DNA of 49,431 nt, taken from assembly GCA_964516645.1 (NCBI GenBank), contig CAZEXE010000001.1:23983-73413 (forward strand). The letters run 5' to 3'. Below, piece after piece: positions 5,826 through 49,431 of this stretch. This DNA comes from an uncultured Candidatus Poseidoniales archaeon (GTDB lineage: Archaea > Thermoplasmatota > Poseidoniia > Poseidoniales > Poseidoniaceae). The stretch's first letter is position 1; each line of letters starts with the position of its first letter. The notes beneath the pieces were generated by a model that saw only the letters and a list, made by a program, of their open reading frames with translations, was not told where the DNA came from and searched no databases. The position numbers were made by a program, and so were the translations under genes.

Positions 5826-8800
5826 ATGAGTGGACTAAATATGGGATATTCCGGTGTTAGATTAAATAACAAGTTTCGTAGACGGTTAATTGTGAACCGA
5901 AAGGCGATTTTGCTAACTGCCCTAATGTTGATGGTTTCGGCTAGTCCATTTATCACACCTTCTTCAGCTAATGAAGTTCAGGACATTGAAGTACTAAACA
6001 CAGTAGTCAACCCTGCAAACAACCACACCTACCATCTTCTTTCTGCTTCGTCATGGAGCGATGCAGCAACTGTGGCAAGAAGCCTAGGGGGATTCCTAGT
6101 TACTGTGGATGATACGGATGAAGACCAATGGATATTCGAGACTTTTGCAGTTGGCAATAATACAACAAGACACCTATGGATTGGCTTGTCTGACCACCAA
6201 AACGAGGGAGATTACCGTTGGCACGACGGCACCCCGTTTACATACAGAAATTGGGGTGAAGGGCAACCTGGTAACGGTGATGATGAAGATTACGTTCACA
6301 TCACTGGAACCAATATGGGATCCATCGATCCGGCTTCTTGGAATGATTTAGAAGATGATCCACAATATTTCCCAGTTTACGGTGTCGTGGAAATCGGAGA
6401 GGGGGCAGATTATGCTCTGCGATTTGACGGTGAGAACGACCACATCAAGATAGACGAAGAAATACCAAATTGGAATGGTGAAATCGAAATCGAAGCATGG
6501 GTAAACGTTCCTGATACCGACGGAATCCAATTCATTACAATGTTTGGCGACTACGGCTGGGGGTTGTACCTAAACGATGGATACCTCGCATATTCCAATG
6601 AATATTCTTTATCTCAAAACCCTACTTCAAATGATTCTATTCAGGAAGGTGTTTGGACGCATGTCAAGGTAGTTGTAAATTCTCAGAACGGAGGTGAATT
6701 CTTCATCGACAACCAATCTGCAGGACTAATTGATGTTAATGATTCGCAGATTCCTGCAGGTGATTTTGGCTCAAATGATTGCTTTCAATCAGGTGATGAT
6801 TGTGATGAATTGTTTATTGGAAGAATGGGGGCAGGCTGCGATTGTAACTACTTCCAAGGAATGTTAGATGACATACGAATAGGAAATTCGATGAACGAAT
6901 CTGTATGGGTGTTTGGCGAAGGTGAAGGAGACTACACCGAAGATTCACAGGGTTGGGGTGGAGAAATTCATGGTGCCGCTTGGGTTATGCCTGATGGTAC
7001 GATTATAGCACAGGCTGTAGAATTGGAAAATGGTGAATATTACGATAATATTGATGCAAGCGCAGGAGATACCTTGCTATTCTTTATGGATATTCCAGAA
7101 AATACTCAATATGTTTCTTTGAGCATATATGCATGGGACTTTGATTTTGATGAAGAATTCAATGAAGATACTGAATATGAAATCTATATTTCAAGGGATG
7201 AGATTCCTTCAGCATGGGATCACGATTATCATGTTGAGACCTTTGAATGGCTATATGTCTACGAATATTTCGAATGGCCAGAGGAAGGAACATACTGGAT
7301 TACTGTTTCCTCAAATTACGATATTTCGAACATGGAAATAAACGCATATTGGGAAGAAGCCCCTGAACCACCAGAATTAGATGAAATGACTGAATTGAAT
7401 GATGGTATCTCTGTCACTGGTCAAAGAATTGCAAGAGAAAGTGGTAAATCATTGTATTATTATGTTGACCTGCAAGATGAACTTGCTGAATTAAGAGTTA
7501 GCACATGGGGAGGGCCTGGTGACTGTGAACTTCACATCGCACTAGGTGCACTACCAATGACTGATGATTGGGGCTGGATCGAAGACGATTTCGTAATCGG
7601 TGAGGCGAGTAGTAGCAATGGTCGTCAATTTGGAGGCCAGCAAACTTCAGACCACTCATACAATTCAGGTAACGATGAAGTCGTGCAAATTTTCGACGCA
7701 CAGCCAGGAATTTACTATGTTATGATGACTACATATTCAGGATGTAGAGATGTTACAATCCAAGCAGATTTCACTTACAGCCCTAACAATATCGACCCAG
7801 AATCAGCAGTGGAATTGACTGATGGTATTCCGTATGGTCCGCTGAGTGGATTTGATGGCCTTGACCAATTCTTCTACATTGACGTACCAGTAGGCACGGA
7901 AAGGTTGGAAGTAGATTTGAACAATGGAGATGGTGAAGCTAAATTGATGATGAGGCTTGACCAAAACCCTACATGGACTACATATGACAAACACTCAAAC
8001 GCACCAGGGGCAGGAGATAAAATTGGATTCAATGATCCTACCCCTGGCCGATGGTACATTCTCTTAGGCAGTGAAGAGCACTATAGCCGAATTGACATCA
8101 CAGCATCATTTGAGGATAGATATGTTTGGACTTATGATGGAGACCCAATTCAGTTATTCAATGAGGAAGAAATTGGTGGAATGAGTGCACCTGAAGGCGA
8201 AGAATTGTACTTCTTTATTGATTTAGGAGATACTTCTGCTATGGATTTGACAATCAGAACATGGGGTGGCGAAGGCGACCTCGGATTATTTGCTGAGATG
8301 GAAGAATTCGAATGGGGTGATTTCGATGAACGCCCAATGGGAAGACAATTTGGTAATACAGAATTTGAATCCGATTGGGGTGGTGCGGAAGAAGAAATCA
8401 ACATTTTCTTTGCAACAGGAAGAATTGATATCACAATTTTCGCCAACACCGATATCGAAGATATTTCGATTATTGCTACATGGGAAGACTTTGATATGCC
8501 TGGGCCAGGACCTGATCCTCCTGGACCTGACCCCCCAATTGATGATGAAATATTAGTTTGTGACGAATATGTTGGAATAATTTTTGAAGAACTCGACAGA
8601 AATGGAGATGGAGATATTTCAACCGATGAACTCATTGACGGACCAGACGAGGAATTTGAAGATATAGACATCAACAGGGATGGTGTAATCGATAAGACTG
8701 AAGCTACAATATTTACCTGTACATGTGATAACGAGTTACATATCACTCTAGACCAAATCAGTTCAGATGATAGAGGTTTCAGCATCGAACAACTTTCGAG

Positions 8801-9302
8801 CATCGCGTGGAAGAATGAATACGATTTCTTTGAGATGGATACGAACAACGATATGAGAATAGATTACGATGAGGTTGAAGAATACGTAGAGAATTGCGTC
8901 ACTACATATGACCCTCTAGACCGAGATGGTGACGGCACTCCTAACGATAAGGATGCTTTTCCAGATGATCCTGATGAAGACAAGGACACAGACGGTGATG
9001 GAATTGGAGATAATGCAGATTTCATCGCATCGGTAAACAATGATGTGATATGGGTTTCAGCAAGTATTCTGGGACTGATTTTGGTAACAGTTCTTGGAAT
9101 CATGTATGTGCGTACTAGGAGAGGTTCTGAGTATGCATGGGAAGAATATCAGAAGGACAATCTGTCTGAGGCTATGTTATCGCATATGACAAATCCTGCT
9201 CTAAGCCCACCTTCACAAGAAGTGGTTCCACCTGCATTAGATTTGGGTCCACCTGTCGACAATGTACCAGAAGATATGACTGTTTCAGATCTTTACGACT
9301 GA
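5826..9302 (+). CDS. Giant secreted type-I membrane protein: signal peptide, C-type lectin-like domain, LamG/ConA-like domain, four PPC-like modules, Pro-rich linker, EF-hand pairs, TSP3 Ca-binding repeats, TM anchor and 60+ aa Pro-rich cytoplasmic tail
   Basis: Leader is RKAILLTALMLMVSASP. CTLD motifs are LWIGLSDHQNEGDYRWHDGTPFTYRNWGEGQPG and SWND. EF-hand loops are DRNGDGDISTDEL and DINRDGVIDKTE. TSP3 repeat region is DRDGDGTPNDKDAFPDDPDEDKDTDGDGIGDNAD. TM segment is VIWVSASILGLILVTVLGIMYV followed by RTRRG. The start could instead be the ATG at 5841. Confidence 0.8.
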   Translation: MSGLNMGYSGVRLNNKFRRRLIVNRKAILLTALMLMVSASPFITPSSANEVQDIEVLNTVVNPANNHTYHLLSASSWSDAATVARSLGGFLVTVDDTDEDQWIFETFAVGNNTTRHLWIGLSDHQNEGDYRWHDGTPFTYRNWGEGQPGNGDDEDYVHITGTNMGSIDPASWNDLEDDPQYFPVYGVVEIGEGADYALRFDGENDHIKIDEEIPNWNGEIEIEAWVNVPDTDGIQFITMFGDYGWGLYLNDGYLAYSNEYSLSQNPTSNDSIQEGVWTHVKVVVNSQNGGEFFIDNQSAGLIDVNDSQIPAGDFGSNDCFQSGDDCDELFIGRMGAGCDCNYFQGMLDDIRIGNSMNESVWVFGEGEGDYTEDSQGWGGEIHGAAWVMPDGTIIAQAVELENGEYYDNIDASAGDTLLFFMDIPENTQYVSLSIYAWDFDFDEEFNEDTEYEIYISRDEIPSAWDHDYHVETFEWLYVYEYFEWPEEGTYWITVSSNYDISNMEINAYWEEAPEPPELDEMTELNDGISVTGQRIARESGKSLYYYVDLQDELAELRVSTWGGPGDCELHIALGALPMTDDWGWIEDDFVIGEASSSNGRQFGGQQTSDHSYNSGNDEVVQIFDAQPGIYYVMMTTYSGCRDVTIQADFTYSPNNIDPESAVELTDGIPYGPLSGFDGLDQFFYIDVPVGTERLEVDLNNGDGEAKLMMRLDQNPTWTTYDKHSNAPGAGDKIGFNDPTPGRWYILLGSEEHYSRIDITASFEDRYVWTYDGDPIQLFNEEEIGGMSAPEGEELYFFIDLGDTSAMDLTIRTWGGEGDLGLFAEMEEFEWGDFDERPMGRQFGNTEFESDWGGAEEEINIFFATGRIDITIFANTDIEDISIIATWEDFDMPGPGPDPPGPDPPIDDEILVCDEYVGIIFEELDRNGDGDISTDELIDGPDEEFEDIDINRDGVIDKTEATIFTCTCDNELHITLDQISSDDRGFSIEQLSSIAWKNEYDFFEMDTNNDMRIDYDEVEEYVENCVTTYDPLDRDGDGTPNDKDAFPDDPDEDKDTDGDGIGDNADFIASVNNDVIWVSASILGLILVTVLGIMYVRTRRGSEYAWEEYQKDNLSEAMLSHMTNPALSPPSQEVVPPALDLGPPVDNVPEDMTVSDLYD
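6015..6395 (+). other. C-type lectin-like domain (cysteine-poor variant) within the 1158-aa protein
   Basis: WIGLSD...W.W.DGTP..Y.NW..GQPG...WND follows the canonical CTLD long-loop pattern. QPG occupies the EPN/QPD position. The usual disulfide cysteines are absent. Confidence 0.65.
7015..8495 (+). repeat. Four divergent tandem pre-peptidase-C-terminal (PPC)-like beta-sandwich modules at the protein level
   Basis: Recurrent pattern: ELENGEYYDNIDASAGDTLLFFMDIP; ELNDGISVTG...LYYYVDLQDELAELRVSTWGGPGDCELHI; ELTDGIPYGPL...QFFYIDVPVGTERLEVDLNNGDGEAKLMM; GGMSAPEGEELYFFIDLGDTSAMDLTIRTWGGEGDLGLF. Confidence 0.55.
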
Positions 9303-26491: not shown

Positions 26492-27643
26492 ATGTCGGAG
26501 TATGCATCGCCTTCTAGAATAAATTGGTTAAATTCGATATTTCTAATCGCAACCCCTGTATTTGCATTATTGGGGGTTCTGGCTCATTGGTCCTACTTTG
26601 GTAGTCCAGGGTGGGTAGAATTCACAGTTTTTCTATCGCTCTACTTTGCATGTGGATTATCGATAACTGTTGGATATCACCGACTGTTTTCACATCGTTC
26701 ACACGAAGCATCGTGGCCACTTGTGTTGTTTTACTCTATTTTTGGGGCAGGTTCATTTCAAAATTCGATAATTGAATGGTGCTCAGATCACAGGAACCAT
26801 CACAAGATGACTGATTCCGATAAGGATCCCTATTCTGCAAGTAGAGGATTCTGGTATTCACACATTGGATGGGTATTAATTGAAGAAGAAAAATTTGCTA
26901 ATGACTTTTCTAATGTCAAGGATTTACAATCTAGTAAGATAATCATGTGGCAACATCGTAACATCTTCCTAATCGGGGCATTATCAGGGATAATTTTTCC
27001 TACATTGGTCGGGTTTTTATTCGGTGGAATTCCTACAGCAATCGGCTGTTTGGTTTGGGGAGGTCTTGTCAGAATTGTATTTGTTCATCATGGAACTTTC
27101 CTAATCAACAGTGCTGCACATATTTGGGGTAGACAGCCATATTCTGAAGATAACTCAAGCAAGGATTCCTTTTGGTTGGCATTTCTAACGTTTGGTGAAG
27201 GATATCACAACTTTCATCACACATTCCAAGCAGATTATCGGAATGGACACAAATGGTACCATGTAGATCCTAGCAAATGGTGGATTCGAAGTTTCAGAAT
27301 ATTGGGACTGAAATCTAATTTGAAATCGACACCAAAACATTCCATTGAAATTGCAAAATTGGATATGAAGTTCAAGAAATCAGCCGATAAATTGGAGGCA
27401 AGTAATCTAGACGTAGGGATTTATCAATCTAAGATATCGCAATATCGTGAATCACTGCGTTCTTGCCTTTATGAATTACACAAAGCGAAAAAGGAACTGA
27501 AAAATGCTGTCAGAGAATCCAAGATTATTGTGAAAAAGAAGATTTCCGAGATTAAGGAAAATTATGCAAATATTCGTGCCGATTTGAAAAAGATGTTCAA
27601 AGAAATGGACGGGAAATACAATTCGATTGTGAAAACCGTTTAA
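26492..27643 (+). CDS. Membrane fatty-acyl (CoA/lipid) Delta9-type desaturase
   Basis: Three His boxes with the order and spacing typical of stearoyl-CoA-type desaturases: HRLFSH, HRNHH (followed by KMTDSDKDPY) and HNFHH. Four TM segments. A coiled-coil C-terminal tail. Confidence 0.85.
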   Translation: MSEYASPSRINWLNSIFLIATPVFALLGVLAHWSYFGSPGWVEFTVFLSLYFACGLSITVGYHRLFSHRSHEASWPLVLFYSIFGAGSFQNSIIEWCSDHRNHHKMTDSDKDPYSASRGFWYSHIGWVLIEEEKFANDFSNVKDLQSSKIIMWQHRNIFLIGALSGIIFPTLVGFLFGGIPTAIGCLVWGGLVRIVFVHHGTFLINSAAHIWGRQPYSEDNSSKDSFWLAFLTFGEGYHNFHHTFQADYRNGHKWYHVDPSKWWIRSFRILGLKSNLKSTPKHSIEIAKLDMKFKKSADKLEASNLDVGIYQSKISQYRESLRSCLYELHKAKKELKNAVRESKIIVKKKISEIKENYANIRADLKKMFKEMDGKYNSIVKTV

Positions 27644-32956: not shown

Positions 32957-33009
32957 TTCGTACTAATGTGTGCATTGGATTTACATGGGAGTCGAGACAG
33001 GGGTGTAAC

Positions 33010-33348
33010 ATGACAGAGTCTCCCAGTGTGGATGAGTTCATTCGTCACATGCAAGCAGAATTGGATGCCTGCGAAGACATTGTTGACAAGAATGAGAGAC
33101 AAAAGTGTCAATGGCAAATCGAATCTTCTCTATTGCTTGCCATTGAATTCTCAAATAGATTCAAGGAATTATCAAAATTAGGTCAAAACCCAATCGAAAT
33201 TGTTCAAGCTTTAGCCACAAATGATGCTTCAACTGCAAATATTGCAAAGCAAGTGATTGCAATAGCAGGAGGCCTATGTCCTTCATGTGGGACGACTATG
33301 GAAGCCGATCTAGATTTTTGTTCTAGTTGTGGTAACTACGTAGAGTAA
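33010..33348 (+). CDS. Hypothetical small protein with a C-terminal zinc ribbon
   Basis: CPSCGTTMEADLDFCSSCGNY at the C-terminus. The track ORF starts at 32968. The ATG at 33010 leaves a divergent intergenic space to ipk. Confidence 0.4.
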   Translation: MTESPSVDEFIRHMQAELDACEDIVDKNERQKCQWQIESSLLLAIEFSNRFKELSKLGQNPIEIVQALATNDASTANIAKQVIAIAGGLCPSCGTTMEADLDFCSSCGNYVE

Positions 33349-34056: not shown

Positions 34057-34124
34057 AATCAGTTCTATTGGATGGGATATTTATTCAGGGCAATGATGAT
34101 GAGAGCAGACCTGCTGGAGTGACT

Positions 34125-35264
34125 ATGCGAGCAGTGATTTCTGACTACGTTCGTACCCCTTTTCATAGAGCCCATAAGGGTGATCTAGCATCAGTTCGGC
34201 CCGAAGATATGTTGGATGCAACGATTAGAAGTATAATCGAGAGATGCGAAATCGATGTTGATGATATTGAGGATTTGATGTTGGGCTGTGCATACCCTGA
34301 AGGAGTTCAAGGACTCAATCTAGGAAGAATTGCTACATACATGCCGGAATTACCTAACACAATACCGGGTATGACTACCAATCGTCTTTGCGGATCTTCA
34401 ATGCAAGTTGCCCACAGTGCGGCCGGTTCCATAAAGTTGGGTTCTGGAGAGTTGTTCTTGGCAGCCGGTGTTGAAACTATGTCACTGGTAAAGAGGGGTG
34501 GCTGGATGCGTGACCTTCACCCTGAACTCGAAAAGAAATATCCCGATGCATACATCTCTATGGGCTTGACAGCAGAAAATCTTGCGAGAGATTATTCAAT
34601 CACAAGGTTGGAGCAAGAGGAATTTGCACTACATAGTCACAATAAGGCTTTGAATGCACAAAACAAGGGCCTACTTACTAATGAAATTATTCCTATAAAT
34701 TCACCTGATAAATTGGTTGAAGAAGACGGTTGTATACGAGAAACATCTGTGGAAAAGATGTCACGATTAGCCCCCGCTTTCCTAGAGGATGGGACCGTTA
34801 CAGCAGCCACATCATCTCCTCTAACCGATGGTGCAGCTTGCAATTTAATTTGCTCTGACTCATATGCAAATGAACACAGTCTAGATGGGCTTGCTGAGAT
34901 AGTTTCAACTGCAGTTGTTGGTGTACCACCTGAAATAATGGGTATAGGGCCAGTCAATTCTTCTAAGAAAGCACTAGAAAGAGCCGGAATTAAGATGGAA
35001 GATTTAGATGTAATCGAACTCAACGAAGCGTTTAGCGCCCAATCACTTGCCGTATTGAAAGATTTAGATTTGGATTATGAAGATGAGAGAATCAACATAG
35101 ACGGTGGTGCATTAGCAATTGGTCATCCATTAGGAGCAAGCGGTGCTAGGATACTTGGAAAGGCAGCATCACTCCTAAACAGGATCGATGGAGAGTATGC
35201 ATTGGCATCAATGTGTATTGGTGGTGGAATGGGTATTGCAACAATTTTACGCAATTATGAATGA
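34125..35264 (+). CDS. Acetyl-CoA C-acetyltransferase (thiolase II)
   Basis: Active-site Cys block is NRLCGSSMQ. The C-terminus has NEAFSAQ, GGALAIGHPLGASGAR and CIGGGMGIA. The ATG at 34125 (MRAVISDYVRTPF) is preferred over the track start at 34068. Confidence 0.9.
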   Translation: MRAVISDYVRTPFHRAHKGDLASVRPEDMLDATIRSIIERCEIDVDDIEDLMLGCAYPEGVQGLNLGRIATYMPELPNTIPGMTTNRLCGSSMQVAHSAAGSIKLGSGELFLAAGVETMSLVKRGGWMRDLHPELEKKYPDAYISMGLTAENLARDYSITRLEQEEFALHSHNKALNAQNKGLLTNEIIPINSPDKLVEEDGCIRETSVEKMSRLAPAFLEDGTVTAATSSPLTDGAACNLICSDSYANEHSLDGLAEIVSTAVVGVPPEIMGIGPVNSSKKALERAGIKMEDLDVIELNEAFSAQSLAVLKDLDLDYEDERINIDGGALAIGHPLGASGARILGKAASLLNRIDGEYALASMCIGGGMGIATILRNYE

Positions 35265-35299: not shown

Positions 35300-36301
35300 A
35301 TGGGTATCCGCAAAGGCCGTAAAGAGGCTTATGAAAATCTCAGTGTTAACGAGGAAGGAGATTGTCCACGTTGTGGTGGCGAAAAGCAACCATCTTCTCT
35401 CTCAGGGTACCTCAGTTGTGTTCGATGTAATTATGAGTGGAAAGATCCAGAACATGTAGCAGAAAAGAGCGGGCCTCCGCAAAATTTCCGTCGAGATGCA
35501 GAATTGATTGAAGAATTCAAGCAAGAGATGCAAAGCGGTGATTTGAGCAATGTTTTGGGTATCGACAAAGGGCTATCTGGAGAGCAAGAAGCATCACTAA
35601 AGCGCTTGGAAGATAAGTGGATGAGTGGTATGAGTGGCCACTTCAATGCTGCTGCTGAAGAGAGAAAACCGTTGATGATTTCATTTGATGATGATGATAA
35701 CTTAGTTGATACAACAGTAGGTAGCATCACAATTGTCGCAAATGGATTTGATGGTGGAGAAGAAATCCGTCTAGAGTATCCTAGCCTAGGAACTGAGTTC
35801 TATGCATTTGATGAAGCAAGTGAAACAGGTTGGCGTCGCGGAAGGACTGCAGAGGATACCGCACGTTCAATTACAAATGTGATTAACAGATTTTCCAAAC
35901 TAGTTTATGCGAACCAGGAAGGTAGTATCATTCTTCTTGAGTTGAGAAATGATCAATTGAATTCTGATTCATTAGTGATTTTCGTCGATGACCCTGGAGG
36001 AACGGATATAGTAGCTGAAAAGGGAGGTGTTTCAATGGATCCAAGAGATGTTAGAATGATCGATGATTACAGAATTGTAGTCGAAATCTGTTTGGCGGAT
36101 GGAATCATATCACCATCTGAAGACCAAATGTTGTGGGCCATGCGCCAACAATTAGGTATCGATGATTATCTTCATGTTCAGATTGTGCAGCAAATTTTCG
36201 GTGAGCATGCACTCAAGGAATGTACCAATTGTGGCGAGATGGCTGAACTTTATGCCGACTATGCTGCATGGTACTGTCATTCCTGTGAAAATTGGTGTTA
36301 G
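35300..36301 (+). CDS. Hypothetical protein with N- and C-terminal zinc ribbons and a TerB-like helical module
   Basis: N-terminal ribbon is CPRCGG...CVRCNYEW. C-terminal ribbon is CTNCGEMAELYADYAAWYCHSCENWC. IVVEICLADGIISPSEDQMLWAMRQQLGIDD resembles TerB/DjlA-N helical repeats. An AT-rich catcatatat lies about 22 nt upstream of the ATG at 35300. Confidence 0.5.
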   Translation: MGIRKGRKEAYENLSVNEEGDCPRCGGEKQPSSLSGYLSCVRCNYEWKDPEHVAEKSGPPQNFRRDAELIEEFKQEMQSGDLSNVLGIDKGLSGEQEASLKRLEDKWMSGMSGHFNAAAEERKPLMISFDDDDNLVDTTVGSITIVANGFDGGEEIRLEYPSLGTEFYAFDEASETGWRRGRTAEDTARSITNVINRFSKLVYANQEGSIILLELRNDQLNSDSLVIFVDDPGGTDIVAEKGGVSMDPRDVRMIDDYRIVVEICLADGIISPSEDQMLWAMRQQLGIDDYLHVQIVQQIFGEHALKECTNCGEMAELYADYAAWYCHSCENWC

Positions 36302-36398
36302 TATAACGAATTATAGATTTATTTGTCATAGTGCTAATCTCAGAAAGTTTAGGCATTATTCATAAGGTGAGAACCAATCGCCCGATTAGGCGAGTAGC

Positions 36399-37424
36399 AT
36401 GGCTGAAGAAGTACTATACATTGGAATTGACCTTGGAACCTTTCGGTCTGTAATGGTATCCAGTGATAGCCATGAAGAAGAAGAACTCACAGTAATTGGA
36501 ACACCTAAGGATCCAATTGCAAGAAATTTCTTGAAAAGAGATGTTCTATTTGGTAACGAGGCACTAAAAAACAGACTTGCACTGAATCTGTTTAGGCCTC
36601 TTGAACTTGGAGTAATCAAGGACACACCCGAGGACAGACAATTCATTGCGCACTTCATTACTCACCTAATAGCATTGTCCGACCCGGAAGAATACGACCG
36701 AGTTGTAGCAGTAATCGGTGCGCCTGCTGAAGCAAGCCACGTTGACAAGACTTCAATCTTCGATGCTGCTGCGGGTTCAGTAAACGCTGCAATGATTATT
36801 TCTGAGCCATTCGCAGTTGCATATGCTTTAGATATGATTGAACACACATTGGTTATTGATATCGGTGCGGGAACTACTGACCTTTGCCGAGTATACGGGA
36901 CCATCCCTGGACCAGGTGACCAAATGCACACTGGATATGCAGGTGATTATGTTGACAATCAGATTATTGTAGAAGTTCAGCGTAAATACAACGGTGCACA
37001 AATTACCAAAGATATGGCTCGACGCTGGAAAGAACAGTACTCTTTCGTGTCTACCTCTACTCCAGATGACCCAATTATGGTCGACTTCTCAATTGAAGGA
37101 AAGGCAATGACTCTCGATATCACAGATTGCGTCCAAGCTGCTTGTGAGTCAATCGTTGACCCTATTGTCGAGAATGCAAAGCAATTGATTGCTGGTTCAA
37201 ACCCTGAATTCCATGATGAATTCCGCAGGAACATGGTTCTTGCTGGCGGTGGTTCTGGAATTAGAGGACTTGGTGCACTTATCGAGCGCCGTCTATCTGA
37301 CATGGGTGAAGTCAATGTTCACGTTGTAGACGACCCGGTTAGACTAGGTGCAATGGGTGGCTTAAGACTCGCCATGGAAGTTCCTGAAGACATGTGGAAG
37401 AACTTGACTCTAGCAACACGCTGA
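36399..37424 (+). CDS. Actin-fold filament-type ATPase of the MreB/MamK clade (MamK-like)
   Basis: Phosphate-1 LYIGIDLGTFRS, phosphate-2 LVIDIGAGTTDLCRV, adenosine motif NMVLAGGGSGIRGL. Segments GTIPGPGDQ, YAGDYVDNQI, WKEQYSFV and GGLRLAMEVPEDMW match my recollection of MamK much better than canonical MreB. An in-frame TAG lies two codons upstream, so this start is the first possible one. Confidence 0.8.
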   Translation: MAEEVLYIGIDLGTFRSVMVSSDSHEEEELTVIGTPKDPIARNFLKRDVLFGNEALKNRLALNLFRPLELGVIKDTPEDRQFIAHFITHLIALSDPEEYDRVVAVIGAPAEASHVDKTSIFDAAAGSVNAAMIISEPFAVAYALDMIEHTLVIDIGAGTTDLCRVYGTIPGPGDQMHTGYAGDYVDNQIIVEVQRKYNGAQITKDMARRWKEQYSFVSTSTPDDPIMVDFSIEGKAMTLDITDCVQAACESIVDPIVENAKQLIAGSNPEFHDEFRRNMVLAGGGSGIRGLGALIERRLSDMGEVNVHVVDDPVRLGAMGGLRLAMEVPEDMWKNLTLATR

Positions 37425-37429
37425 GTCTC

Positions 37430-38002
37430 TCATTCCTCTTCCGAGCCACTCAATACTAGTGGCGAATCACAGTGTGGACAAGTGTCTTCAAGTGACAATA
37501 GTAGTGGGTTAACTGCTAGAACTGCTAAGCATGTTGGGCATGCTGCAAGCATTTCATTTGCCGGCAAGTTGAGATTTTCATCATAGATCGAATGACCACT
37601 GTATCCCATTTGATAAACAGGATGGAAATGAACCCGAATGAATCGAACCGATGAAAATATTGCATATCCCAAAATCAATGCAAATACAAGACCAGTTATT
37701 GAACCTGAGAAAATCGCTATGATGTTTAGGACCATAATCAAACAAAAAATCAAAGTCAATACTCCGATAATAATCGGCACAAACCAATATGCCCATGCGG
37801 CTCTGTTCCGGTAGCCGAACCAAACTGACAGGAAGAAGAGGCCTGGAATTAATGCAAGGCTACCAAATACTTGGAACACAAAGAATGTCACTATCAATGA
37901 ATCAACAACTAGAATGAAAGATGTACGACTATGCAGGGCATCTATCGGATTCGCATGCCTAGGCTGAGAGCCTGCCAGAATCATCTCATCAGCAGCGGAC
38001 AT
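37430..38002 (-). CDS. Hypothetical 4-TM membrane protein with a C-terminal cytoplasmic zinc ribbon
   Basis: Four long hydrophobic helices, then CPTCLAVLAVNPLLLSLEDTCPHCDSPL and an acidic end. Convergent with the actin-like gene across a 5-nt gap. Confidence 0.5.
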   Translation of the reverse strand: MSAADEMILAGSQPRHANPIDALHSRTSFILVVDSLIVTFFVFQVFGSLALIPGLFFLSVWFGYRNRAAWAYWFVPIIIGVLTLIFCLIMVLNIIAIFSGSITGLVFALILGYAIFSSVRFIRVHFHPVYQMGYSGHSIYDENLNLPANEMLAACPTCLAVLAVNPLLLSLEDTCPHCDSPLVLSGSEEE

Positions 38003-44571: not shown

Positions 44572-45312
44572 TCACAAGTTACGGATATCCAATCTATCTC
44601 CATTAATGCCAGATGTTCCAAGGCAATAGGGAAGTAATTTTTTTGCGACGTCAAGCGGATTTGTCAAATCTCCATTACGATGATATTCTATGAAATTTGC
44701 TAGCAAAGGGAACGAGGATTCATCAGCTCCACGTATATCTTCCTGCATCCCAGTATCCACAATACCTGGAGCGATGGCTAATGCTGAAATATTCTCATGC
44801 ACGCCTTCTACTGCCATGCATTGCGCCCACATATCAAGTCCAGCTTTAGAAACACAATATGCACTCCAACCATGTAGTGATCTTTGTGCAGCACCACTGG
44901 AAATCGTTGTGATTCTTGTATGATTTTCTCCCCCAAGTATTGAAACTAAAGAGCACGTTAAATCTTGAACTCCAACCAAATTTACCTGAATTGTTCTCTC
45001 CCAATCTGTTCGTTTGGCATTTAACATATTGGCAATCGGATGGATAATTCCAGCATTGTGAATAATTCCCGAAAGATGTTGAAACTTGGAAAGTATTTGT
45101 TCTGCAGCGCTTGAAATTTCCGATGCTATAGCAAGGTCGCAGGCAATTGAAATAGATTCATTGGAAATCGATTGCAGTTCGCTTTCAATTTGACTTAATT
45201 CTTCGCTATTACGTGCCAAAGCAATCACAGGATATCCTGATTCTGCAATTGAAAGTGCGATTGAACGACCGATTCCTTTGGATGCGCCAGTGACTAAATA
45301 TGCCCCAAACAT
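44572..45312 (-). CDS. Short-chain dehydrogenase/reductase (classical SDR)
   Basis: Cofactor motif VTGASKGIGRSIAL, NAG motif HNAGI, and catalytic YCVSKAG. Confidence 0.8.
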   Translation of the reverse strand: MFGAYLVTGASKGIGRSIALSIAESGYPVIALARNSEELSQIESELQSISNESISIACDLAIASEISSAAEQILSKFQHLSGIIHNAGIIHPIANMLNAKRTDWERTIQVNLVGVQDLTCSLVSILGGENHTRITTISSGAAQRSLHGWSAYCVSKAGLDMWAQCMAVEGVHENISALAIAPGIVDTGMQEDIRGADESSFPLLANFIEYHRNGDLTNPLDVAKKLLPYCLGTSGINGDRLDIRNL

Positions 45313-45345: not shown

Positions 45346-48300
45346 TCATTCATTCCAAACTCTGAATCCATCATCAGTTGAGTACCAATATCGGCCTTCT
45401 TTGTCTTGGTACCAGTTCACTCCCTTCTCATCATTTGGCATCCATTCGCCCTCTGGCAATTCCTCCCATGATGAGACAAAATCTACTACTGTTTCAGATT
45501 CAACCTTCTCAAGAACTTCTTCTGCAGAATCTTGAATCGATTCTTCTAATGCCGGATGTACTGTCTCTTTGCTAGGCTTAGACCTATGTTTTGGCTTCTT
45601 GCGAATTAATACCGCAATTGCACCAAATAGAATCAGAACTATTCCAACACCTGCAATCCCCAAAATCAACACGAAACTAGAATCCTCTTCATCGTCATCC
45701 TGACTAGAGGTTGTTTCATCCTCTTCTACTGTCTCTAGTTCTGAAATACATCCTTGGGTATTAGAATATAGGAATGCCGAGTATTCATTCGGACACCTGT
45801 CAGGTTGTGTAGCTCCAATTAAGAATTCTCCCAAAACACGACCATCACTCCAATCTGGATTATCCCAATTATCTCCAAAACCATCATTATCAGTATCATT
45901 CCATTGCGTTGCATCTCCATCATTGAAATCATGGTCAAAGGACCAACCATCTCCGTCCAGATCAAAACATCCAATTTGGTCGTGAATAGATGTTCCTTTC
46001 TGAAGCGGGCAATCATCTCCGTTCTCACCATCAGAATTGTCACCATAGCCGTCATCGTCTGAATCTGCCCATTGTTCAGGATTATTGTCATCCCAATCCA
46101 AATCAGAATACACTAGGTCACCATCGGCATCTATTTCAGAAGGTGCACAACCAACATATGGATTTAGTACGGTATTGTGTTCATCGAGATACATTGTTGT
46201 ATTTACTTGAGTTGTTTGTAGAATAGGAGTAGAAGGGCATTGGTCAACATTATCAGTGAATGTGTCGTAATCGCCATCTCTTTCTGAAGGTCCACAACCA
46301 TCGGAGTTGACCATAGATAATTCATCTGCAGGTGTTTCTACACATAGGTCATAGTTACCAGCCGAAGCAGTGTCTCCCACACCATCTCCATCCTCATCTC
46401 TGTATTGTTCCGGATTCGATGGCAAATCGTCTATTGAATCTGCCCATCCATCACCATCTGAGTCTGGGCAACCAAATATTCCTTCCTTATGTGAGGTACC
46501 ACTTACATTTACGCAGTCGTCACCTTCTAGGCCGGTGTTGTTATCACCAAAACCATCGGAATCTGAATCTGCCCATTGTGAATCTTCGTACGGGAATACA
46601 TCAGAATTATCTCCATAACCATCTAAATCTGAATCTTTCCACTCAGATTTGTCATCAGGGAAATCATCATTCGGATCAGACCATCCATCACCATCCGCAT
46701 CTAGGCAACCCAGAAGGTCTTCAGTCGAATTACCATATTCAGTAATACAATCATCAGAGTTGTCACCATATCCATCCATATCTGTGTCGTTCCATTCTGT
46801 GTGGTCATCAGGATGACTATCATCAGAATCTGGCCATCCATCGCCATCCGAGTCCGGACAACCAATGCTACCAATAGTTGAAGTTCCTGCAACATCATTA
46901 CAATCATCAATGTCATTGGTGTAACCATCATTATCTGAATCAAGTTGGTTTTCAGCGCATCCATCCGAATCGATTGTGAGTCCTAAATCAGTGTCTGGAC
47001 ACAAGTCTTCGCCATCCCAAACGCCATCAGAATCAGAATCTGGAAGTAAATGAGACATGTCGACTCCAAGTTTAGACCAAGAATAATACAATCCCAATAT
47101 ATCTAGGCCAGTAAAGCCCATTTGCTCCCACTTTAATTGGCCCATATCGGTCAAGAGGTACTTCAGGAAATTGAGATTGGTAGAGATGTGGTCAAGTGAA
47201 ATGAATGCCCGCATATCTGTTTGAAGCGGCCATTCACCAGTACGTGAAGCGTTGATTGAAGCGTTTACAGCAATCCCTCCATTGGCAATTGCGTCAGCAG
47301 CTCCATGAGTGAAATTATCCACAAGAGGAACGAGGTAGACTCCATTTCCATTGTTTAATGAATAAACCAATTCTGTAAATCCAATTGATCCTTCTCCACC
47401 AGATGCTGAAAGTCCGTCTGTTACATCAGACCTAAATTCTCCTGCAACCGCTCTATACCGGGCTGAACTCGATGGATAAATTGAATCTGTTTGTGCACAA
47501 TTTGCACAGAGTACAGTTTCTTTCAAAATTGTGGTATCGGTTTTATTTTCCCAACGATGTGACAATACTATCTCAGTATCCGGACATGACGAATCCAAAT
47601 CTATCCATTCTGGAACCCCGTTTCCATCATCATTAGGAACAACTGAAGACCAATCAAGTGCAGGCATTTCTCCACTTGAGGTTAGGTCAGCTTTACCATA
47701 ACTAGAGGTCATCCATCTCACCTGTCCCATAGATAGTCCACCAAGTGTTTGCATACAAGCCTCGGTTTGACCTCCTGCTTTTACCATCAGTGCACCAGCT
47801 GCTCTACCATATGGTATCTCCAAAATTTGCCCATCTGTATTCTTGCAATCCCACAATCCTGTGGTTGAATAATTTGCATCCTTCGTAGCATACAATGGAC
47901 TTACTCCATTTGTGCTTGAACCAATATAATGTTTAGAATCACAAACATCTAATGTTGCAATTATTCGATCAGAGTCCCAAACTCGGACAGCCTCATCTGT
48001 TGTTGGATAAGTCGACCTCCAGGGGTCTTCCATCAATGAAGTATAGTACTCCCCATGTACCCGAATAAACGCATCAGGGACCATCTGTATCGAAGTATAT
48101 CCGCGCCTCCAACCAACTGCAAGCCGTTCGCCTGAATCATCAAAGGCAATTGAATAGACGCCACGATTATTTCGACTTGAGCCAAAGTTATCCATAGTTC
48201 CTAAACTAGACCAAGTGTCTGTTCGAAATGCATAAATCGCTTCCTCTTGCCTACCTCGAACCGCAATTAAGGTTCCACCATCTGGTGAAAAATCGATATC

Positions 48301-49188
48301 ATAAACATCTGAACCTAAATTTAGTGTTTTGACAACTGTTTGGTTACGAAGATCAGTAATTATGACATTATTGTCATCAGAACCAGTAGCCACATACCTA
48401 CCATCGGGACTTACCGTCAATGCTCTGATGTAATCAGTATGATTAGTCTTGTTCAATGCCAAAGTACCATTACTCATCCAGTATCCACGGAGGTTGTTAC
48501 CTGAAGTGAATAGTACCAAACGGTCATCGGGTGTAGTATCTATGCCACTAGTATAACTAGGCAGTGAAGTGAAATTTTCTACCAATGTCCAATTAGTAGT
48601 CTCGAACCATTTGACTCCTATTCCACCAGCATGTGTTATTACTCTACTACCATCATTTGACCAAGCAATTGCAAATATATCACTGGAGGTATTGATTAAA
48701 TCTACAATCAAACTTCCGGTCGTTGAATTGATAATTCTGCAACCACCATCATCACTCGCAACTGCCAACATAGTTCCATCTGGTGATACTGCTATTTCGT
48801 TAATATCACCCGGCATTTGGTAGATTGGTAATTGATGATTTGCCATTGGATCAAAAATATGAACTTCTTCATTTCCACCACCTGCATAGAACATGCTGAA
48901 ATTGTTGGCCCAAGCCATTCCTTTTACCCCGGAACCTGTACTTCCATAGTCAGTTTTCTCTCGAATTGAGTCACCCCAATTATGCATAATGGTTTGCTCA
49001 AAATTTGCTAAGCCATCTCCATTATCATCAGGGCATCCCAAGCCCAAAGTTGAGTTTGCAGTTCCTGCGGCAAAAGGACAAATGTCTACATCATCGTTAA
49101 CGCCATCACCATCGCCATCTAAGGCTGTACTAATGGGTGTAAAAACCACGCACAGCATCAGAGCAGACAACAAGATAGCCTTCCGCAT
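45346..49188 (-). CDS. Giant secreted type-I membrane protein: signal peptide, TSP3 repeat, WD40-like beta-propeller, PstS-like periplasmic-binding-protein domain, a dozen or more TSP3 Ca-binding repeats, TM anchor and aromatic-rich cytoplasmic tail
   Basis: Leader is MRKAILLSALMLCVVFTP (ATG 49188; the track ORF starts at 49257). WD-like blades: AVSPDGTMLAVASDDGGCRII, TVSPDGRYVATGSDDNNVIITDL, DFSPDGGTLIAV. PBP-like block: GSIGFTELVY...GEWPLQTDMRAFISL...FLKYLLTDMGQ. Many DxDxDG loops (DSDGDGWPDSDD, DTDMDGYGDNSDD, and others). TM segment is FVLILGIAGVGIVLILFGAIAVLI followed by RKKPKHR. Confidence 0.8.
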   Translation of the reverse strand: MRKAILLSALMLCVVFTPISTALDGDGDGVNDDVDICPFAAGTANSTLGLGCPDDNGDGLANFEQTIMHNWGDSIREKTDYGSTGSGVKGMAWANNFSMFYAGGGNEEVHIFDPMANHQLPIYQMPGDINEIAVSPDGTMLAVASDDGGCRIINSTTGSLIVDLINTSSDIFAIAWSNDGSRVITHAGGIGVKWFETTNWTLVENFTSLPSYTSGIDTTPDDRLVLFTSGNNLRGYWMSNGTLALNKTNHTDYIRALTVSPDGRYVATGSDDNNVIITDLRNQTVVKTLNLGSDVYDIDFSPDGGTLIAVRGRQEEAIYAFRTDTWSSLGTMDNFGSSRNNRGVYSIAFDDSGERLAVGWRRGYTSIQMVPDAFIRVHGEYYTSLMEDPWRSTYPTTDEAVRVWDSDRIIATLDVCDSKHYIGSSTNGVSPLYATKDANYSTTGLWDCKNTDGQILEIPYGRAAGALMVKAGGQTEACMQTLGGLSMGQVRWMTSSYGKADLTSSGEMPALDWSSVVPNDDGNGVPEWIDLDSSCPDTEIVLSHRWENKTDTTILKETVLCANCAQTDSIYPSSSARYRAVAGEFRSDVTDGLSASGGEGSIGFTELVYSLNNGNGVYLVPLVDNFTHGAADAIANGGIAVNASINASRTGEWPLQTDMRAFISLDHISTNLNFLKYLLTDMGQLKWEQMGFTGLDILGLYYSWSKLGVDMSHLLPDSDSDGVWDGEDLCPDTDLGLTIDSDGCAENQLDSDNDGYTNDIDDCNDVAGTSTIGSIGCPDSDGDGWPDSDDSHPDDHTEWNDTDMDGYGDNSDDCITEYGNSTEDLLGCLDADGDGWSDPNDDFPDDKSEWKDSDLDGYGDNSDVFPYEDSQWADSDSDGFGDNNTGLEGDDCVNVSGTSHKEGIFGCPDSDGDGWADSIDDLPSNPEQYRDEDGDGVGDTASAGNYDLCVETPADELSMVNSDGCGPSERDGDYDTFTDNVDQCPSTPILQTTQVNTTMYLDEHNTVLNPYVGCAPSEIDADGDLVYSDLDWDDNNPEQWADSDDDGYGDNSDGENGDDCPLQKGTSIHDQIGCFDLDGDGWSFDHDFNDGDATQWNDTDNDGFGDNWDNPDWSDGRVLGEFLIGATQPDRCPNEYSAFLYSNTQGCISELETVEEDETTSSQDDDEEDSSFVLILGIAGVGIVLILFGAIAVLIRKKPKHRSKPSKETVHPALEESIQDSAEEVLEKVESETVVDFVSSWEELPEGEWMPNDEKGVNWYQDKEGRYWYSTDDGFRVWNE
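45850..47045 (-). repeat. Array of thrombospondin-type-3-like DxDxDG calcium-binding repeats (protein level), with partial DNA-level repetition
   Basis: About 13-15 DxDxDG loops. Three near-identical 30-mers (plus-strand reading) are ccatccatcaccatctgagtctgggcaacc at 46444-46473, ccatccatcaccatccgcatctaggcaacc at 46681-46710 and ccatccatcgccatccgagtccggacaacc at 46834-46863. Confidence 0.75.
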
Positions 49189-49243
49189 GTTGATGCCAAT
49201 GCACTCATCACCTAAACTCTTGGCTATTAGTGAGCGTTGCATT

Positions 49244-49431
49244 TCAAGAGTAATCATAGAATCCTAGACCCGATTTACGACCTAATTTTCCTTGTTCAAC
49301 CATTTCTATAAGAAGTGGTGCTGGAGCGTATTTATCGTCAGCCAAACCTTCATGCAAAACGTTCATTATATGCAGTACTGTGTCGTTACCAATCAAATCA
49401 GACAATGCAAGTGGACCTATTGGATGGTTCA
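49244..49431 (-). CDS. 3-hydroxyacyl-CoA (3-hydroxybutyryl-CoA) dehydrogenase, C-terminal fragment; the gene enters from the right edge
   Basis: My own reverse-strand translation is [61 protein letters not shown]-stop (TGA = complement of 49244-49246). This matches the remembered C-terminal domain HPMGPL.L.DLIGLD....M.VL...... KY.P.PLL..MV..G.LGRK.G.GFY. Confidence 0.7.

Follow-up and report, generated by a model that had tools for sequence, protein, structure and literature searches.

An order-wide MamK-type actin and its zinc-ribbon neighbor in Poseidoniales: a candidate two-gene cytoskeletal module in Marine Group II archaea

Here, we analyzed a stretch of 49,431 nucleotides (the window, at its full length) from an uncultured Candidatus Poseidoniales archaeon (GenBank assembly GCA_964516645.1, contig CAZEXE010000001.1) and concentrated on a gene at positions 36399..37424 of the forward strand, which encodes a 341-amino-acid (aa) protein that we refer to as actin A. 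By fold and sequence, actin A is an actin-like ATPase of MamK rather than MreB type, and in nearly all of the related loci that we compared, its gene is directly preceded by one for a 333-aa protein with a zinc ribbon at either end, ZnR_up (35300..36301, forward strand). We regard it as probable that this locus is a two-gene cytoskeletal module, made up of a MamK-superfamily actin and a zinc-ribbon accessory protein and conserved across Poseidoniales, in which polymerization, the interaction of the two partners, and the positioning of a cargo are all putative. An earlier note on this DNA had proposed a membrane-anchored filament module of three genes, the third of which (37430..38002, reverse strand) encodes a membrane protein with a zinc ribbon, TM_ZnR. 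All three open reading frames (ORFs) are present; however, unit-like behavior was observed for the upstream pair only.

Results

The closest homologs of actin A are encoded by metagenome-assembled genomes (MAGs) labeled Candidatus Poseidoniales, Poseidoniaceae, or Thalassarchaeaceae, i.e., Marine Group II (MGII), and most of these homologs carry the source annotation “rod shape-determining protein MreB.” The actin motifs quoted in the earlier note (IGIDLGTFRS, VIDIGAGTTDL, and VLAGGGSGIRGL) all occur in the 341-aa translation, and the MamK peptides quoted there agree with the MamK chains of PDB entries 5ljw and 5jyg in a HMMER alignment. The preference for MamK over MreB was likewise upheld. 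Actin A scored 354.9 bits against the NCBIfam MamK model (NF040964), compared with 90.0 bits (cutoff, 293) and 79.9 bits (cutoff, 365.75) against the MreB models PRK13927 and TIGR00904, neither of whose cutoffs was reached. Among the sequences of solved structures, it matched MamK with an E value of 4.7e-73, BeeR (PDB 8r2n), a MamK-related actin of Verrucomicrobiota that forms three-stranded tubules (PMC11929497), with one of 1.1e-42, and MreB with one of 7.2e-14. Matches to the family models of Hsp70, sugar kinases, and EutJ were negligible (E values of 1e-7 or weaker).

Actin A is not a strict MamK, since its score lies under the curated NCBIfam cutoff of 400; in the tree described below, whose deep nodes have little support, it also appears outside the bona fide MamK clade. 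For comparison, the same model gave 367.5 bits for the ortholog from the sister family MGIIb, 329.8 bits for a second Poseidoniales actin (paralog B; see below), 412 to 425 bits (above the cutoff) for homologs from Nitrospira and Gemmatimonadota, and 472 to 508 bits for proteins of the bona fide MamK clade. Nor did actin A reach the cutoffs of the NCBIfam models for BeeR (NF053558; 210.6 bits versus 530) and salactin (58.5 bits versus 400). The Pfam models fail to discriminate here. The top Pfam match was MreB_Mbl (89.7 bits; cutoff, 27), which does not set MamK-type proteins apart; the Salactin model gave 50.6 bits, above its cutoff of 27.1 yet well under the MreB_Mbl and MamK scores, and the Volactin model gave 22.5 bits, under its cutoff of 35.

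The AlphaFold2 (AF2) model of actin A, built on a 43-sequence alignment, had a predicted local distance difference test (pLDDT) score of 91.2 and a predicted template modeling score (pTM) of 0.88. Its best Foldseek match was a MamK filament subunit (5ljv_A; template modeling [TM] score, 0.89/0.93; root mean square deviation, 2.0 Å), and TM scores were 0.83 to BeeR, 0.77 to 0.81 to MreB, and ca. 0.75 to eukaryotic actin; as modeled, the actin fold is closest to the MamK protomer. The catalytic residues are E136 (E143 of MamK) and D154 (D161 of MamK). These two residues and the segments D11-L-G-T14, G156-A-G-T-T-D161, and G283-G-G-S286 are 94 to 100% conserved among 107 MGII orthologs, and, judging by sequence, the nucleotide-binding motifs (phosphate 1, phosphate 2, and adenosine) and the catalytic Glu and Asp are intact. 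Across the same orthologs, whose identity goes down to 77%, 196 of the 341 positions are invariant. The protein starts MAEEVLYIGIDLGT, 5 residues before the first beta-strand, and is without an N-terminal amphipathic extension.

A scan of species-representative genomes found a relative of actin A in at least 223 species-level genomes, and among 1.84 billion cluster representatives, searched exhaustively, 144 homologs had an E value of ≤1e-30. In a neighbor-joining (NJ) tree of 88 actin domains (100 bootstraps, rooted on Thermotoga maritima MreB), the MGII proteins form one clade with 100% bootstrap support. Its sister is paralog B (88% support; 44 to 45% identity to actin A), and the next group (68% support) comprises proteins of 523 to 1232 aa whose actin domain is preceded, in the same chain, by a coiled coil at the N terminus and a long disordered stretch. 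AMB-1 MamK and BeeR sit in clades apart from the MGII proteins, the deep nodes having less than 20% support. Further relatives come from ANME-2/Methanosarcinales archaea, Nitrospira, Gemmatimonadota, and Acidobacteriota.

Gene linkage was assessed in 84 loci, namely, 80 kept from the 223 genomes with a relative plus four from MGIIb. In 81 of the 82 loci with room for it, ZnR_up lies directly upstream of actin A, on the same strand and separated by 51 to 158 nt; the sole exception (locus L035) is a split alignment. This pair is kept while both flanks change: the upstream thiolase is replaced in many loci, and downstream of actin there may be peroxiredoxin-like genes, transaldolase/transketolase genes, or genes for unrelated membrane proteins. 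TM_ZnR adjoins actin in 34 of 78 loci, is displaced by 2 to 3.5 kb in 10, and is absent from a flank of up to 5 kb in 34, whereas it adjoins coaBC in 40 of 43 loci, where the two form a divergent pair ca. 100 nt apart. The three-gene arrangement is ancestral, because it is found in both MGII families; its conservation was borne out for ZnR_up, MGIIb included, and to a far smaller extent for TM_ZnR. Between MGIIa and MGIIb, protein identity is 81% for actin, 64% for thiolase, 59% for ZnR_up, 46 to 49% for coaBC, and 26 to 33% for TM_ZnR. Actin is thus the best-conserved gene of the block, and its 81% identity, together with its invariant positions, would fit a polymer with many constrained surfaces.

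The ORF of ZnR_up opens mechanically at 35261; an alignment with 39 orthologs favors the Met at 35300. The earlier note had described zinc ribbons at both termini and, in addition, a TerB-like helical module. The ribbons are well founded, as C22, C25, C40, and C43 at one end and C308, C311, C326, and C329 at the other are invariant in 40 orthologs. The TerB-like module did not hold up: Pfam PF05099 scored 17.2 bits over 31 residues against a gathering score of 24.4, and TerB matches in 17 of the 40 orthologs were all subthreshold (best E value, 0.002). Apart from these, Pfam returned only subthreshold zinc-ribbon matches for the 40 orthologs. A profile search of PDB sequences likewise returned solely L37ae zinc ribbons (E value of about 5e-3), and Foldseek found no meaningful structural match in the PDB (best TM score, 0.23, to phage tail proteins). 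The N-terminal ribbon resembles those of L37ae, IS1595 transposase, and TFIIB, through matches that are again subthreshold. Homologs of ZnR_up fall into 304 clusters; among the 120 listed, the taxon labels, where given, are Poseidoniales or “Euryarchaeota” throughout, and a precomputed Pfam domain is absent from all but a few. On the evidence of these 120 clusters, ZnR_up appears to be restricted to Poseidoniales.

The 40 ZnR_up orthologs share a conserved central domain, an invariant DGIISPSEDQ.LW helix, and an invariant segment, R122-K123-P124-L125-x-I127-x-F129-D130. In the AF2 model, this last segment lies in a region with a pLDDT of <50, and residues 135 to 333 have a pLDDT of ca. 88. A segment that is invariant and yet predicted to be disordered would be consistent with a docking motif. 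Given its adjacency to actin A in 81 of 82 loci and its apparent restriction to Poseidoniales, ZnR_up is the likely partner, and a probable adaptor, of actin A.

The intergenic region between the two genes (36302..36398, forward strand) contains two conserved gene-specific motifs, TATAGA (36312 to 36317) and TTCATAAGG (36359 to 36367), as well as GGCGAG just before the ATG, with column conservation above 80% across 83 distinct orthologous upstream sequences. Within the window, these motifs stand upstream of actin A only, except for one TATAGA and one TTCATAA before two other genes, and they may be a gene-specific promoter or 5′-untranslated-region regulatory element. No Rfam match to the region was found. 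A scan for sigma-70 promoters and terminators, signals that are not relevant to archaea, gave nothing above shuffled expectation. Nor did a search for centromere-like repeats in and around the locus reveal an array; the repeats there are short, two-copy, and attributable to chance.

TM_ZnR is a 190-aa protein with ca. four transmembrane segments, a C-terminal CPxC...CPxC zinc ribbon, and an acidic tail. Its earlier description as a four-transmembrane protein with a cytoplasmic ribbon is supported as far as the ca. four hydrophobic segments and the conserved C-terminal ribbon are concerned; the cytoplasmic side follows from the positive-inside rule alone. The homologs fall into 93 clusters; wherever a cluster bears a taxon label, it is Poseidoniaceae or “Euryarchaeota,” and Pfam domains are lacking throughout. 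The best-conserved part of the protein is its C-terminal tail.

Poseidoniales encode a second MamK-type actin, paralog B (P0129; 335 aa; loci L085 to L088 and L093 to L172), which we found in 422 stretches in a metagenome scan and which is located at another genomic site, in the order S8 peptidase-actin B-coiled-coil protein-PcrB. P0129 was considered as a non-Poseidoniales outgroup and rejected; its neighbors FtsY and PcrB are labeled Poseidoniales, Thalassarchaeaceae, or Poseidoniaceae, and it is therefore a second MGII paralog. In 68 of the 69 loci with room for it, a gene for a 426-aa coiled-coil protein with an acidic tail follows that of paralog B, ca. 95 nt downstream and on the same strand. 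Homology among ZnR_up, this coiled-coil protein, and the N termini of the long fused proteins was also considered and rejected (hhalign probabilities of 0.1 to 0.3; 0.1 for ZnR_up versus the paralog B accessory protein). As far as sequence can tell, the pattern in this clade appears to be one MamK-type actin with one lineage-specific accessory protein, which supports the reading of ZnR_up as the accessory factor of actin A.

Several of the more distant relatives have contexts of their own. The long proteins (P0124 to P0139; loci L090 and L091; 523 to 1232 aa) begin with a conserved coiled coil, continue through hundreds of residues of disordered, low-complexity sequence, and end in a MamK-like actin domain; a Rosetta-stone fusion to a ZnR_up-like part was looked for among them and rejected, the fusion, seen in bacterial relatives, being to the coiled coil and disordered region instead. 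At L091, the fused gene is followed by a short actin-like gene (in a cluster labeled KSB1 bacterium), several Roadblock/LC7 genes, and a gene for an Arf/Ras-like small GTPase. On an ANME-2 contig, a protein of 1940 aa that is nearly all coiled coil and has no Pfam match (L089:7103-12925) comes directly after the MamK-type actin of ANME-2/Methanosarcinales (P0141; 42% identity to actin A). Another relative (P0136; 43% identity; L092:1-4507) lies inside a chemotaxis cluster in the order CheA/W-CheC-CheD-actin-unknown-CheC, a placement suggestive of a connection between a MamK-type actin and the chemosensory arrays of this organism.

As to the remainder of the window, its GC content is even (0.40 to 0.45), and the 36 ORFs that we accepted as genes were scanned with Pfam (of the 39 ORFs reaching 150 aa, 34 were accepted, together with 32968..33348). 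The scan agreed with the earlier description of the surroundings as archaeal housekeeping genes, finding Lhr helicase, TiaS, diphthamide synthase, proteasome alpha, SBDS, exosome Rrp4/41/42, ribosomal S7, aEF-2, geranylgeranyl diphosphate (GGPP) synthase, Tpt1, thiolase, CoaBC, and SurE. The gene at 32968..33348 (forward strand) encodes a 126-aa protein with a C-terminal zinc ribbon (subthreshold DUF7575/DZR matches), so that the neighborhood holds three separate zinc-ribbon proteins; it is syntenic upstream, beside Tpt1, in 64 of 80 related loci. Farther away, a protein of 1303 aa (45346..49257, reverse strand) has a WD40 beta-propeller near its N terminus (residues ca. 100 to 380), the remaining ca. 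900 residues being without recognized domains, and is of a size unusual for a streamlined marine archaeon. A protein of 1158 aa (5826..9302, forward strand) with C-type lectin, LamG/concanavalin-like, and pre-peptidase C-terminal (PPC) domains is probably a secreted or surface glycan-binding protein. Bacterial-type lipid and fatty-acid genes are also present in this archaeal genome, namely, those for a fatty-acid desaturase (26492..27643, forward strand), a thiolase (34068..35264, forward strand), and a short-chain dehydrogenase/reductase (44572..45312, reverse strand). Finally, two of the loci retrieved (L051 and L055) have a gene content typical of Poseidoniales and were deposited under bacterial MAG names (Salinimicrobium sp. 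and Rhodobiaceae bacterium), probably as a result of binning contamination in the public records.

Discussion

Our preferred explanation, that actin A and ZnR_up constitute a two-gene cytoskeletal module, suggests the following sequence of events. Actin A most likely binds and hydrolyzes ATP through E136 and D154 and, by analogy with MamK and BeeR, both of which polymerize with ATP (PMC11929497), most likely assembles into dynamic filaments. ZnR_up, in turn, would most likely bind the actin, either through its invariant, predicted-disordered RKPLMISFDDDDN segment or through its well-folded C-terminal domain, and could then either use its terminal zinc ribbons to link the filament to a cargo or regulate filament assembly. 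The chromosome or another cellular structure is a candidate for such a cargo. The module has nothing to do with magnetosomes. As the earlier note had claimed, no other magnetosome-type gene was seen in the Pfam scan of the 36 window ORFs, and no magnetosome context was seen around the actin in the 84 related loci.

Several observations weigh against this explanation. Beyond its zinc ribbons, ZnR_up has no functional domain that Pfam, the PDB profile search, or Foldseek could recognize. Adjacency within a single order may in part reflect general synteny; tpt1 and the small zinc-ribbon gene, for example, are also often kept upstream. Since the actin gene has conserved upstream motifs of its own, cotranscription with ZnR_up is not required. 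Finally, the invariant D273 of actin A aligns with A278 of MamK, and the title of PDB entry 5ljw states that the A278D substitution makes MamK nonpolymerizing, so at least one contact of the MamK lattice is not conserved. However, this column varies across the wider family (E, D, A, S, or P, and V in BeeR, which does polymerize), and the filament lattice of actin A may simply differ from that of MamK, as does the lattice of BeeR.

A more far-reaching proposal, for which we would claim somewhat less than an even chance, is that MGII hold an undescribed actin cytoskeleton composed of two anciently duplicated MamK-type actins, each with its own nonhomologous accessory protein, whose filaments, by analogy with MamK, would serve to place or segregate some structure inside the cell or the chromosome. 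Paralog B resembles actin A in its archaeal order, its position as sister clade, and its being locked to a single accessory gene; it differs in its genomic site and in its accessory gene, which is located downstream and shows no recognizable homology to ZnR_up.

An actin gene together with an adaptor gene is the typical layout of type II partition systems, and the locus of actin A and ZnR_up has this same two-gene layout. One may therefore ask whether the module is a ParM- or salactin-like machine for DNA segregation, with ZnR_up as a DNA-binding analogue of ParR that links the chromosome or a replicon to the growing filament; this is the version of our preferred explanation that names its cargo, and as a specific claim, we consider it rather unlikely. 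The resemblance of the N-terminal ribbon of ZnR_up to nucleic-acid-associated ribbons speaks for it, as does the precedent of salactin, whose closest subfamily is MamK, which forms dynamic filaments in archaea (PMC10746226), and which aids DNA partitioning in Haloarchaea (PMC10746226, PMC10869688). On the other hand, the repeat search found no centromere-like array in or near the locus, no RHH/ParR-like domain was found, the position of the adaptor gene upstream of the actin is unlike that in parMRC, and the ribbon matches are subthreshold, quite apart from the fact that zinc ribbons also mediate protein-protein contacts.

The membrane-tethered module of three genes proposed earlier, in which TM_ZnR would anchor the filament to the membrane and ZnR_up would serve as a second adaptor, appears unlikely, and the membership of TM_ZnR in any such module is doubtful. 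It is true that the convergent adjacency of actin and TM_ZnR is found in both MGII families and is therefore ancestral, that TM_ZnR is lineage restricted, and that its C-terminal ribbon, predicted to be cytoplasmic, and its acidic tail are its best-conserved parts. However, TM_ZnR stands beside coaBC far more regularly than beside actin, it evolves much faster than actin does, and the convergent orientation rules out cotranscription. The upstream part of the earlier proposal thus stands through the tight linkage of ZnR_up, while the term “membrane-tethered” is left without a solid basis by the loose linkage of TM_ZnR to actin, its tight linkage to coaBC, and its rapid evolution.

It is very unlikely that actin A is a nonpolymerizing actin-fold ATPase (with a chaperone-, kinase-, or regulator-like role) whose likeness to MamK reflects ancestry only. 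The presence of D273 at the very position where A278D abolishes polymerization of MamK would agree with such a role; set against this are the filaments formed by all of the closest characterized relatives (MamK and BeeR), the variability of that position in a family that includes the polymerizing BeeR, the negligible matches to Hsp70, sugar kinases, and EutJ, and a surface-wide conservation that is more typical of polymers. Least likely of all is an MreB-type rod-shape determinant, the label that most databases attach to actin A and one that its top Pfam match to MreB_Mbl and a predicted fold similar to that of MreB would also allow, because the NCBIfam and PDB comparisons place MamK far ahead of MreB, the N-terminal amphipathic (membrane-binding) extension is missing, and the Pfam scan of the window detected no mreC/mreD/rodA-type neighbors. 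The function of MreB is tied to peptidoglycan synthesis, a process that, to our knowledge, is lacking in Poseidoniales.

How, then, does the module formed by actin A and ZnR_up compare with known systems? Actin A is most like MamK (PDB 5ljv, 5ljw, and 5jyg; NF040964), its best match by sequence (38% identity) and by predicted structure, and it has the same length without extensions and the same catalytic Glu/Asp and nucleotide-binding motifs. It is unlike MamK in lying under the family cutoff and, in the NJ tree, apparently outside the bona fide clade, in its archaeal host, whose window is without magnetosome genes, in having a zinc-ribbon protein rather than MamJ, MamY, or McaA/B as its partner, and in its Asp at the position of A278. 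BeeR offers a precedent for a MamK-related actin with a different function in nonmagnetotactic organisms (TM score, 0.83; 30 to 33% identity to actin A); however, the defining hallmark of BeeR is a disordered N-terminal extension of 30 to 50 aa (PMC11929497), which actin A lacks, and actin A falls far short of the BeeR cutoff (211 versus 530 bits) and sits in a separate clade of the NJ tree. Like the haloarchaeal proteins salactin and volactin, which form dynamic filaments, actin A is an archaeal, non-MreB member of the actin family; unlike them, it comes from Thermoplasmatota rather than Methanotecta/Haloarchaea and has no charged N-terminal tail, and its scores are under the NCBIfam salactin and Pfam Volactin cutoffs. 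With ParMRC and the Alp (type II) systems it shares the combination of an actin-like ATPase and one small dedicated adaptor gene. Yet actin A has no sequence match to the ParM or Alp families, its locus is without centromere repeats and is chromosomal and order-wide rather than plasmid borne, and ZnR_up is unrelated to ParR.

MamK relatives in nonmagnetotactic organisms (BeeR) and archaeal actins (salactin and volactin) are thus already known in kind. What is new is a MamK-type actin that spans an archaeal order, with a novel zinc-ribbon protein as its likely partner, together with a second, paralogous module. A full-text literature search turned up no account of an actin or MamK-like system from Poseidoniales or MGII, in keeping with the earlier remark that no actin cytoskeleton had been described in this lineage.

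Poseidoniales are globally abundant, uncultured archaea of the surface ocean whose cell biology is almost unknown. A near-invariant actin present in at least 223 species-level genomes and currently mislabeled “MreB” in databases, a lineage-specific partner, and a second module provide concrete, testable parts of a cytoskeleton for these organisms. Being small and sufficiently soluble, the proteins lend themselves to heterologous expression and cryo-electron microscopy, which allows the hypothesis to be tested even though the organism is uncultured. Our results also extend a picture in which the MamK/BeeR/salactin branch is widespread outside magnetotactic bacteria and in which, across this branch, the actin repeatedly comes paired with, or fused to, an accessory protein that changes from lineage to lineage. 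If the reading of two actins as one cytoskeleton is true, MGII would be the first lineage of Thermoplasmatota known to have a MamK-like positioning system.

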